From positions 240 to 64,239 of the forward strand of contig JBHHWH010000002.1 in assembly GCA_046756405.1 (NCBI GenBank): DNA of 64,000 nucleotides, written 5' to 3'. A program made the position numbers and the translations under genes. Position 1 is the stretch's first letter. Each line of letters opens with the position of its first letter. The notes beneath the pieces are model-generated. The model saw only the letters and a program-made list of their open reading frames with translations. It ran no database searches and was not told the DNA's origin. Below are positions 21,234-23,266 of the stretch, piece by piece. Origin of the DNA: Acidimicrobiia bacterium (GTDB taxonomy: Bacteria; Actinomycetota; Acidimicrobiia; Spongiisociales; ZC4RG35).

Positions 21234-22244
21234 CTAGGCGTCGAGTTCGGCGAGGCGCTCGAGAAGGTCGACGACCCGGTTGGAGTAGCCCCACTCGTTG
21301 TCGTACCAGGCCATCACCTTCACCAGATTCCCTCCTAGGACCTGGGTGCTTCCGGCGTCGAAGACGGTCGAGTGGGGGTCGCCGATGATGTCGGTGGAGA
21401 CGATCGGGTCTTCGGTGTACTCCACGATCCCGGCGAAGGGACCCTCGGCTGCCGACCTGATCGCCTCGTTGACCTCCTCGGCGGAGACGTCCCGTTCCAG
21501 CTCCACGACGAGGTCAACCGTGGAACCGTCGGGAACCGGCACCCGCATCGCCATCCCGTCCAGCTTTCCTTCGAGCTGGGGAAGTACCTTGCCCACCGCC
21601 TTGGCCGCCCCGGTGGTGGTGGGGATGATGTTCTCCGTGGCCGCCCTGCTGCGACGGAGATCCTTGTGGGGGACGTCGGCGAGACGCTGGTCGTTGGTGT
21701 AGGCGTGGACCGTGGTCATCACCCCCCGTTTCACCCCGAAGGCGTCGTCGAGGATCTTCACCAAAGGAGCGAGGCAGTTCGTGGTGCAGGAAGCATTGGA
21801 GATGATGCGGTCGCTTTCGTCGAGCCGGTCGTCGTTGACGCCCAGGACGATGGTCTCATCGACGTTGTCCTTGGCGGGGACGGTGAGGATCACCCGCTTC
21901 GCTCCGGCGTCGAGGTGTTTCTGGAGCGACTCCCGGTCCCGGAACCGACCGGTGGCCTCCACCACGATGTCCACTTCCAGCTCGGTCCAGGGGAGCTTGG
22001 CCGGATTGGGTTCCATCAGCATTCTTACCTCATGGCGACCGACCCGCATCACCCCGTCCTCGACGACCACCTCATGGTCGAAGCGGCCCATCACCGAGTC
22101 GTATTCGAGGAGATAGGCGAGGATGTCGTCGTCGGAGAGGTCGTTGATGGCCACCACCTCAATGTCGGGGTTGTCCCGCTCGACGATGATGCGGAAGACA
22201 GCCCGTCCGATGCGTCCGAAACCGTTGATGGCCACCCGGGTCAT
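21234..22244 (-). CDS. gap: Glyceraldehyde-3-phosphate dehydrogenase, type I (catalytically competent copy)
   Basis: 336 aa. NAD-binding motif INGFGRIGR. Active-site signature [12 protein letters not shown] with the catalytic Cys. Catalytic His in TTVHAYT. C-terminal [11 protein letters not shown]. Confidence 0.9.
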
Positions 22245-23266
22245 GCCGGTTCCCCCACAAGTTGTCCTGCCACAACATGGGCCACCTCGACGACCCGGTT
22301 TGAATAGCCCCAGCCGTTGTTGAACCAGGTGATGGTCTTCACCATGTCACCTCCGGTGACCATGGTGGCCAGACTGTCGAATATCCCCGAGCGGGGGTCC
22401 ATCCGCACGTCGGAGGAGACGATGGGGTCTTCCACATAGGCGATGATGTTCCTGTAGCGGGTCTGGGTGGCCTTCCTGATGACTTCGTTGACCTCTCCGG
22501 CGGTCACCTCCCGTCCCACCTGGGCCACCATGTCCACCGTCGACCCGTCCGCCACAGGGACGTTGAGGGCGGTCACCACCAGCTTTCCGGTCAGTTCGGG
22601 CAGGACCTGGGTGATGATCTCGGCCGAGTTGGTCTCCGTGGGGATGATGTTTTCCGCGGCGGCCCGGGAGGTGCGGAAGGAGTCGGTGGGGACGTCGGCG
22701 AGACGCCCGGCGTTGGACATGGCTTTTACCGTGGTGATGAACGCACGTTTGAGTTCGAAGGCCTCGTCGAGGGTGGCGAGGATCGGAGCGGCGGCGTTGG
22801 AGGTGTTGGAACCCAAAGCGACGATCGCCGGCTCGTCGTCCAGCACTTCATCGTTGATGCCCCGCAGTAGTAGCGGGATCTCCCCCGGGGTTTCGGGACT
22901 GGAGGTGAGGATCACCCGGCGGGCCCCGGAGTCGAGGTGCCCCTGGAGGGCGGCCTTGCTGCGGTAGCGGCTGGTGGTGTCGAGGACAACGTCCACCCCC
23001 AACTCACCCCAGCGGGTGTCGGCGGGAGTACGGAAGTCGGCGAAGACCACATCCCGGGAGTCGTAGCTGAGGACACCTTCGGCGTATTCCAACTCGCCGG
23101 GGAACCGTCCGTACAGCGAGTCGTACTTCAACAGATAGGTGAGGGCCGCCGGATCGGCGATGTCCGCGACGGCGACGACTTCGAGTTCGTTGTTGCCGTG
23201 TAGCAGCCGGAACACGTTGCGTCCGATGCGTCCGAGCCCCATCAGACCTATTCGTATCGCCCTCAT
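22241..23266 (-). CDS. GAPDH-family paralog lacking catalytic Cys and His (predicted catalytically inactive)
   Basis: 341 aa. GAPDH fold throughout ([12 protein letters not shown] ... [13 protein letters not shown]). Active-site signature is [10 protein letters not shown] (Cys to Asn). The His position is TTVKAMS (His to Lys). Stop overlaps the downstream gap start. Confidence 0.8.

Follow-up and report, generated by a model that had tools for sequence, protein, structure and literature searches.

The much-studied enzyme glyceraldehyde-3-phosphate dehydrogenase (GAPDH) counts as a homotetramer in bacteria. The closest described departure is found in land-plant chloroplasts, where the two GAPDH paralogs GapA and GapB, one of them regulatory, form an A2B2 tetramer. 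Outside the GAPDH family, paralogous subunits without catalytic function occur in the HisZ-HisG ATP-phosphoribosyltransferase, in the alpha/beta pyrophosphate (PPi)-dependent phosphofructokinase of plants and as regulatory subunits of eukaryotic NAD-isocitrate dehydrogenase; for GAPDH, the literature we searched reports no arrangement with a dead paralog as subunit. Here, we analyze a 64-kb stretch of contig JBHHWH010000002.1 from an Acidimicrobiia bacterium (assembly GCA_046756405.1; called the window below, 64,000 nucleotides in full), in which two GAPDH-family genes lie head to tail on the minus strand. The upstream gene encodes a GAPDH paralog without the catalytic residues, which we call psi-Gap (psi), or GapX when referring to its wider family; the downstream gene encodes a canonical type I GAPDH, called Gap. 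The comparative data incline us to the view that psi is a non-catalytic paralog working with the co-translated Gap, likely in a mixed tetramer.

The parallel with the plant enzyme lies in the use of two GAPDH paralogs with one in a regulatory role, and plant A2B2-type structures (2PKQ, 7Q53-7Q57) are among the PDB sequence matches. However, the tetramer has been seen in plants, while for psi and Gap it is proposed here. Plant GapA and GapB are both catalytic (Cys149, His176; residue numbers follow the conventional Bacillus stearothermophilus GAPDH scheme), whereas psi appears to be catalytically dead; GapB regulates via a C-terminal CP12-like extension, which psi lacks; and the plant genes are nuclear and uncoupled, in contrast to the translationally coupled psi and gap. 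HisZ-HisG-type heteromers resemble psi in featuring a duplicate, derived from the catalytic subunit or a related enzyme, that has lost catalytic residues and is kept by selection, but their extra subunit is allosteric or structural, a role that we propose for psi. In fold, domain architecture and NAD motifs, psi is the same as the B. stearothermophilus (1GD1) and Thermotoga maritima (1HDG) enzymes. The C149S and C149A GAPDH mutants (1NQ5, 1NPT) are folded, NAD-binding, inactive tetramers, which makes a natural Cys-less subunit plausible; compared with these mutants, psi additionally lacks His176, Arg195, Arg231, Gly209 and Glu314 and scores below the NCBIfam equivalog cut-off. GapA/GapB isoenzyme pairs, such as the glycolytic and gluconeogenic GAPDHs of Bacillus subtilis, and the erythrose-4-phosphate dehydrogenase Epd are likewise cases of more than one GAPDH-family gene per genome with divergent roles, but these paralogs all keep the Cys/His dyad and the phosphate sites, are neither adjacent nor coupled, and form separate homotetramers.

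A first-pass annotation, made from the sequence alone, had claimed that the upstream copy carries Asn and Lys in place of the catalytic Cys and His, and had named an indel misalignment as one way in which this could be wrong. The psi and Gap sequences align with zero gaps across residues 140-240 (BLASTP), so the substitutions fall exactly at the catalytic positions; the solved GAPDHs 1HDG and 1CER give the same active-site alignment, and no indel rescues either residue, which excludes the misalignment. The SCTTNC motif of Gap is replaced by SNTSNA in psi (Cys149 by Asn154, Cys153 by Ala) and TTVHAYT by TTVKAMS (His176 by Lys181, Thr179 by Ser). Beyond the losses already claimed, psi has Thr in place of Arg195, the second Arg of the S-loop 'RR', Asn in place of both Gly209 and Arg231, and Gly in place of Glu314, while Thr208 is retained; the changes at 179, 195, 231 and 209 lie in the anion (Ps/Pi) sites. 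With the Cys/His dyad and both phosphate-site arginines lost, psi is, judging by its residues, unable to perform the covalent GAPDH reaction, as had been claimed, and no compensating conserved basic residue for the lost arginines was seen in psi orthologs. The losses cover the residues that thiohemiacetal and thioester chemistry requires as well as those that would hold the substrate and the attacking phosphate. The NAD-binding motif was correctly described as retained: psi keeps the GxGRIGR loop, Asp32, Asn313 and Tyr317, all invariant among orthologs, and from these dinucleotide-binding motifs, psi probably binds NAD(H). The downstream copy is canonical, with Cys153 and His180 as the catalytic pair; all 72 partner Gap orthologs agree, keeping Cys149, His176, Thr179, Arg195, Arg231 and Glu314.

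Both proteins match Pfam Gp_dh_N and Gp_dh_C (for psi, PF02800 with E = 1.1e-43 and PF00044 with E = 9.9e-27) and share 47% identity (BLASTP, E = 8e-104). Apart from this two-domain architecture of type I GAPDH, psi departs from the definition of EC 1.2.1.12 in several respects: it lacks Cys149/His176 and intact anion sites, and scores 290.7 bits against TIGR01534 (NCBIfam), compared with 459.2 for Gap and an equivalog cut-off of 367.2. It is not an Epd, as it has no Cys and scores 245.2 (cut-off 530.55) and 239.5 (cut-off 539) with the Epd models TIGR01532 and NF010058, nor an ArsJ-associated GAPDH, with an NF033735 score of 262.2 against a cut-off of 450; no ArsJ or major facilitator superfamily (MFS) gene was found conserved beside the psi-gap pair. 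The GapX family is delineated here, and NCBIfam holds no dedicated model for it. The placement of psi in this family follows from Asn, Gly and Asn at positions 231, 314 and 209, the hallmarks of the GapX module described below, and psi resembles a pseudoenzyme subunit in being a paralog of a catalytic subunit that has lost the catalytic residues and is under purifying selection. Structure prediction agrees with the fold assignment. The AlphaFold2 (AF2) model of psi is a confident GAPDH fold (pTM 0.83), whose best PDB matches are bacterial GAPDHs (Foldseek, TM 0.82-0.84; B. stearothermophilus on top with 0.84), and at the sequence level, psi matches solved bacterial GAPDHs with phmmer E-values of ~1e-76 to 1e-78.

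Is psi simply a gene in decay, or an error? Counting one genome per species, at least 473 loci encode a psi relative; the 80 related loci compared here are the best 80 of these and come essentially all from Acidimicrobiia metagenome-assembled genomes (MAGs), including complete chromosomes. Asn and Lys occupy the catalytic positions in all 120 closest database clusters (69-91% identity), and all 81 psi orthologs have Asn at 149 and Lys at 176, likewise Ala at 153, Asn at 209 and Gly at 314 without exception, while Asn at 231 is found in 77 of them. This recurrence excludes the sequencing or assembly artefact that the first-pass annotation had allowed for. The ratio of nonsynonymous to synonymous substitution (dN/dS, NG86) has a median of 0.19 for psi, with 0.05-0.2 for the closest and least saturated pairs, compared with 0.11 for Gap; amino-acid change in psi is ~1.9x faster than in Gap, yet clearly constrained. 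The two proteins have 106 conserved positions in common and 46 clade-specific conserved differences. Conservation within psi is highest in the Gly-rich dinucleotide loop (GxGRIGR), Asp32, the S-loop (RLADVP...SRAA.ENIIP), [13 protein letters not shown] and the clade-specific [17 protein letters not shown] segment, and IVSSD and WFNNGWGY are also among the best-conserved motifs; what psi conserves best are thus its NAD motifs and interface elements. psi is a selected, functional protein under strong purifying selection. A decaying duplicate (pseudogene) or artefact, for which the missing catalytic residues are the sole argument, is refuted by the intact reading frame, a GC content at third codon positions of 0.83 that is similar to that of neighboring genes, the low dN/dS, and identical substitutions in 81 independent genomes as well as in the database clusters; we give it practically no weight.

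The overlap of stop and start codons that had been described for the two genes is an ATGA junction, and the arrangement is a stable one. Canonical gap directly follows psi in 77 of the 80 loci, that is, wherever the contig extends far enough; the other 3 contigs end at or just past psi. The first-pass annotation had asked whether the Cys-less clade always pairs with an active gap, and among the Acidimicrobiia loci compared here it does so in each one that is not truncated by a contig end. Among 74 measurable junctions, the genes overlap by 4 nucleotides (nt) in 40 loci and by 1 nt in 4, and are separated by 1 nt in 8 and by 2 nt in 22; in related loci, a GGAGG-like element for gap lies inside the coding end of psi. 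The same pairing is seen for P0120, a closer psi relative. The flanks are also conserved, with rsfS, nadD and an M23 peptidase gene on one side and genes for a response regulator, a vWA/CoxE protein and MoxR, often with a CoxL-like gene, on the other. As initially stated, this is not a gap-pgk-tpiA operon: no pgk, tpiA or second gap gene was found within the window.

The gene following gap had been described as an alpha/beta hydrolase gene, which is real but not part of the unit. It was considered as a functional partner of the pair and rejected: no homolog (E <= 1e-10) occurs in any of the 80 related loci, so we regard it as a passenger gene. The slot after gap is variable and holds, for example, genes for an acetyltransferase and an MFS transporter in loci L082/L083. 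In the window, the hydrolase gene starts 56 nt past the gap stop and has its own AGGAGG ribosome-binding site; the longest open reading frame (ORF), with a GTG start and reaching to 21294, overlaps gap and is probably too long. No terminator-like hairpin was found between gap and the hydrolase gene, so the latter may be co-transcribed with gap here.

What generally stands out beyond the Acidimicrobiia is how far the two-gene arrangement reaches. An exhaustive search of 1.84 billion cluster representatives revealed other divergent GAPDH-like proteins in which Cys149 is missing (N, V, S, A, G or P) and His176 is present. Ten distant family members were examined, of which eight are of the upstream type and two are canonical GAPDHs picked blind from the partner clade; each of the ten belongs to a pair, and GapX precedes Gap every time. 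Their neighborhoods are unrelated and their DNA ranges from 30 to 74% GC; the junction is an overlap or a spacer of 1-5 nt in 9/10, and ~80-107 nt in Eisenbacteria loci. Together with the tight coupling in the Acidimicrobiia loci, this supports the earlier claim that psi is co-expressed with an active GAPDH. Besides Acidimicrobiia, the module is carried by Acidobacteriota, Planctomycetota, Eisenbacteria and marine MAGs. Judging from this distribution, the two-gene cassette is older than the Acidimicrobiia lineage and a common unit across several phyla, and psi, rather than being a lineage curiosity, represents one branch of this wider family.

Searching with a profile built from diverse GapX sequences yielded 118 full-length best matches. 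Position 231 is never Arg among them (N in 108, K in 8, C in 2), position 314 is G or S instead of Glu, and position 209 is almost never Gly (N, W, Y, H and others), while His176 is present in all 118 and Cys149 in 84, being replaced by N, V, I or G in the remaining 34. By these counts, what marks the family is the loss of Arg231 and Glu314, and many of its branches have also lost the nucleophile; the changes from His176 to Lys and from Arg195 to Thr are confined to the Acidimicrobiia branch. On a conserved scaffold, the wider family admits C, N, V, I, S, A, G or P at position 149, the kind of free variation to be expected where this site can do without catalysis. Residues exclusive to the GapX and partner clades are very few (Leu at ~103 is common to both, Met50 and Val120 are partner-specific), and as a co-adaptation signature they were too weak to use.

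Several distant loci have features of their own. At 2525-6005 of L092, the pyruvate kinase gene pyk, GapX (Ala at 149) and gap form an overlapping three-gene string that links the GapX module to lower glycolysis; the gene set of this contig is Bacteroidota-like, with a TonB receptor, alginate lyase, 2-keto-3-deoxygluconate (KDG) kinase and 2-keto-3-deoxy-6-phosphogluconate (KDPG) aldolase. In a marine MAG cluster (P0138; 137 members, 420 amino acids), GapX carries an extra N-terminal extension of ~85 residues without Pfam annotation, and one NCBI member is labeled 'hypothetical protein'.

How would such a pair work? Conserved gene order and translational coupling favor equal, co-localized synthesis. 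psi and Gap would be produced side by side, probably at similar levels, and join in a mixed tetramer of the GAPDH type, such as alpha2beta2. Glyceraldehyde-3-phosphate would be oxidized by the canonical subunits only. For the psi subunits, which retain the fold, the elements of tetramer contact and, probably, the NAD(H) site, this would leave a structural or allosteric role, possibly as NAD(H) sensors; the contact elements, assigned on the basis of published B. stearothermophilus mutant work, include the 46-52 and 276-286 loops and the S-loop with its Asp186, which psi has kept. NAD binding, hetero-oligomer formation and a regulatory effect are what we infer from these features. The evolutionary rates of psi and Gap agree with this mechanism, covarying with a partial r of 0.53 across 52 genomes, close to the 0.55 of the known MoxR-vWA pair in the same loci and above all other pairs (-0.34 to 0.24), although the test is crude, using distances to a single reference and ignoring phylogenetic non-independence. 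In a tree of 139 sequences, the GapX proteins all fall into a single clade and their partners all into a single sub-clade of the canonical GAPDHs, which suggests long co-adaptation of a dedicated partner, although this is a quick neighbor-joining tree, in which fast-evolving sequences can cluster artificially.

Besides the limits of these two analyses, a number of points weigh against a mixed tetramer with an inert subunit. Enzymes that form no complex with each other can be tightly coupled in operons, too. The psi model has pLDDT values below 50 in the S-loop (184-211) and at 282-300, and such low-confidence interface loops were considered as a sign of an obligate partner; this was rejected, as the model of Gap, built from an equally shallow alignment, has the same pattern at 183-205 and 284-289, and low AF2 confidence therefore says nothing specific about psi. 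Two apparent GapX-Gap fusions, P0271 (673 amino acids) and P0272 (564 amino acids), were likewise dismissed, because an Arg-rich out-of-frame stretch between the halves marks them as frameshift artefacts. They lie on contigs of 0.58-0.67 Mb with the frameshifts inside GapX, and are probably long-read assembly errors that can be mistaken for fusions. Furthermore, the retention of Cys149 in 84 and of His176 in all of the 118 GapX matches means that the ancestral GapX may have been an enzyme in its own right. Finally, Asn154 and Lys181 are strictly invariant in the Acidimicrobiia clade, a constraint that exceeds the need of a purely vestigial pocket and leaves room for ligand binding or other chemistry.

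These last points lead to the idea that psi is an independent enzyme, performing a Cys-independent, NAD-dependent chemistry via the Asn154/Lys181 pocket, such as direct hydride transfer to a non-phosphorylated or differently charged substrate, and sharing an operon with GAPDH because of a role in the same pathway. Asn154, Lys181, Ser153, Thr155, Asn157, Thr212 and Asn213 show no or almost no variation among the 81 orthologs and the NAD motifs are kept; many GapX still have both dyad residues, so that the family may stem from a real enzyme with an altered phosphate site; and clades that are active despite lacking the active-site Cys exist in the GAPDH-like superfamily (review, PMC12041015). However, position 149 can be almost anything family-wide and Lys176 is found in one clade only, leaving no common alternative catalytic set; psi has lost both substrate-anchoring arginines without visible compensation; and the neighbors of the pair differ from lineage to lineage and include no other conserved pathway genes. 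We consider an independent enzyme unlikely. Slightly less likely still is a variant within the psi-Gap complex, in which the pocket with the invariant Ser-Asn-Thr-Ser-Asn motif and Lys181, beside the intact NAD site, would be a new active site for a Cys-independent, non-covalent, NAD-dependent reaction or would tightly bind a glycolytic intermediate as an allosteric signal. If true, psi and Gap would together make up a GAPDH complex that is bifunctional or gated by a metabolite, not an enzyme with an inert subunit.

ACT domains are small-molecule-binding regulatory modules, and canonical GAPDHs are well known for moonlighting. At 1222-2758 of L096, an ACT-domain gene lies 35 nt upstream of GapX (Ser at 149), which overlaps gap. 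This one distant locus hints at small-molecule regulation and, together with the retained dinucleotide-binding motifs, the polar and invariant pocket and the moonlighting of canonical GAPDHs, speaks for psi as a ligand-binding or moonlighting protein that forms no stable mixed tetramer: it might sense NAD(H) or a metabolite, bind RNA, or transiently protect or help to assemble the active GAPDH. However, the conserved order and tight junctions (Eisenbacteria excepted) fit a production of both proteins in stoichiometric amounts better than a sensor, of which catalytic amounts would do, the dedicated partner clade suggests long co-adaptation, and psi has no added domain for a nucleic-acid or signaling output. 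We regard this as improbable, if somewhat less so than an independent enzyme. Among the functions initially offered for psi, a regulatory or scaffolding subunit of a hetero-tetramer best fits the comparative sequence data.

Table 1. Features of the psi-gap locus and other genes in the window, and ten distant family members with their GapX residues at positions 149/176
Feature	Coordinates	Strand	Description
psi-Gap (psi, GapX) gene	22241..23266	-	341-aa GAPDH-fold paralog; ORF, Pfam and alignment
Gap, canonical type I GAPDH partner	21234..22244	-	336 aa; Cys153 codon 21788-21786, His180 codon 21707-21705; Arg231 and Glu314 present
ATGA junction	22241..22244	-	psi stop TGA (22243-22241) overlapping gap start ATG (22244-22242)
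GGGGGA, Shine-Dalgarno-like element of gap	22251..22256	-	Within final psi codons, 6 nt before ATG; read from sequence
AAC codon, Asn154	22805..22807	-	At catalytic Cys149 position; alignment
AAA codon, Lys181	22724..22726	-	At catalytic His176 position; alignment
psi/M23-peptidase intergenic region	23267..23350		Between divergent genes; AAGGA ribosome-binding site at ~23275-23279
Alpha/beta hydrolase gene	20131..21177	-	Downstream of gap
MoxR/vWA/response-regulator block	15024..20057	+	MoxR-type AAA ATPase, vWA/CoxE-like, single-domain response regulator, lone CoxL-like molybdopterin large subunit
M23 peptidase ORF	23351..24422	+	Divergent from psi, running into nadD ORF
tRNA-Ala (GGC)	24834..24909	+	Just past rsfS
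GlpD-like gene	30994..32649	+	FAD-dependent glycerol-3-phosphate dehydrogenase (DAO and DAO_C)
Second molybdenum cofactor (MoCo) dehydrogenase set	35100..38443	-	FAD subunit and large subunit
P0123			GapX N/H; following ORF begins [14 protein letters not shown]
P0124			GapX C/H, no Arg231; Acidobacteriota
P0125			GapX V/H; fumarase gene upstream
P0131			GapX N/H; marine, 30% GC
P0134			GapX S/H; ACT-domain gene upstream
P0128			GapX S/H; Planctomycetota
P0274			GapX C/H; Terriglobia
P0331			GapX C/H; Eisenbacteria
P0130			Canonical GAPDH, blind pick; upstream GapX A/H; locus pyk, GapX, gap
P0132			Canonical GAPDH, blind pick; GapX upstream, N/H

The operon promoter presumably lies in the intergenic region upstream of psi (Table 1), where a scan with the sigma-70 consensus gave no match. 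Regulatory RNAs were also looked for: the single Rfam match in the window, also the only ARAGORN match, is the tRNA-Ala gene. On the far side of the intergenic region, the M23 peptidase and nadD ORFs overlap by ~50 nt in related loci, and the longest nadD ORF in the window (GTG at 23646) is probably over-extended. The MoxR/vWA/response-regulator block is syntenic with the gap pair across Acidimicrobiia, with the CoxL-like gene in some loci only, and the window holds a second set of MoCo dehydrogenase genes. The GlpD-like gene, 8 kb from the gap pair, encodes another enzyme of triose-phosphate metabolism near the pair in this window.

Finally, we would like to place the psi-Gap pair into the context of annotation and of GAPDH biology. 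JGI, and in part NCBI, annotate GapX proteins, including Cys-less ones, as 'glyceraldehyde 3-phosphate dehydrogenase' or 'type I GAPDH'; for some, including the Acidimicrobiia clade, PGAP uses 'GAPDH NAD-binding domain-containing protein', with the partners labeled 'type I GAPDH'. Labeling GapX as GAPDH means that functional gap genes are over-counted in metabolic reconstructions, which affects Acidimicrobiia, Acidobacteriota, Planctomycetota and marine MAGs. In the full-text literature searched, which does not extend to subscription journals, neither a Cys-less GAPDH paralog from bacteria nor a GapX-Gap tandem was found to be described. A cassette of a normal GAPDH and a disabled paralog would be a new quaternary organization for a central glycolytic enzyme, and a tetramer with half of its sites reactive would bear on the half-of-the-sites reactivity and the negative NAD cooperativity of GAPDH. 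It would also add a clear bacterial metabolic example to the biology of pseudoenzymes.

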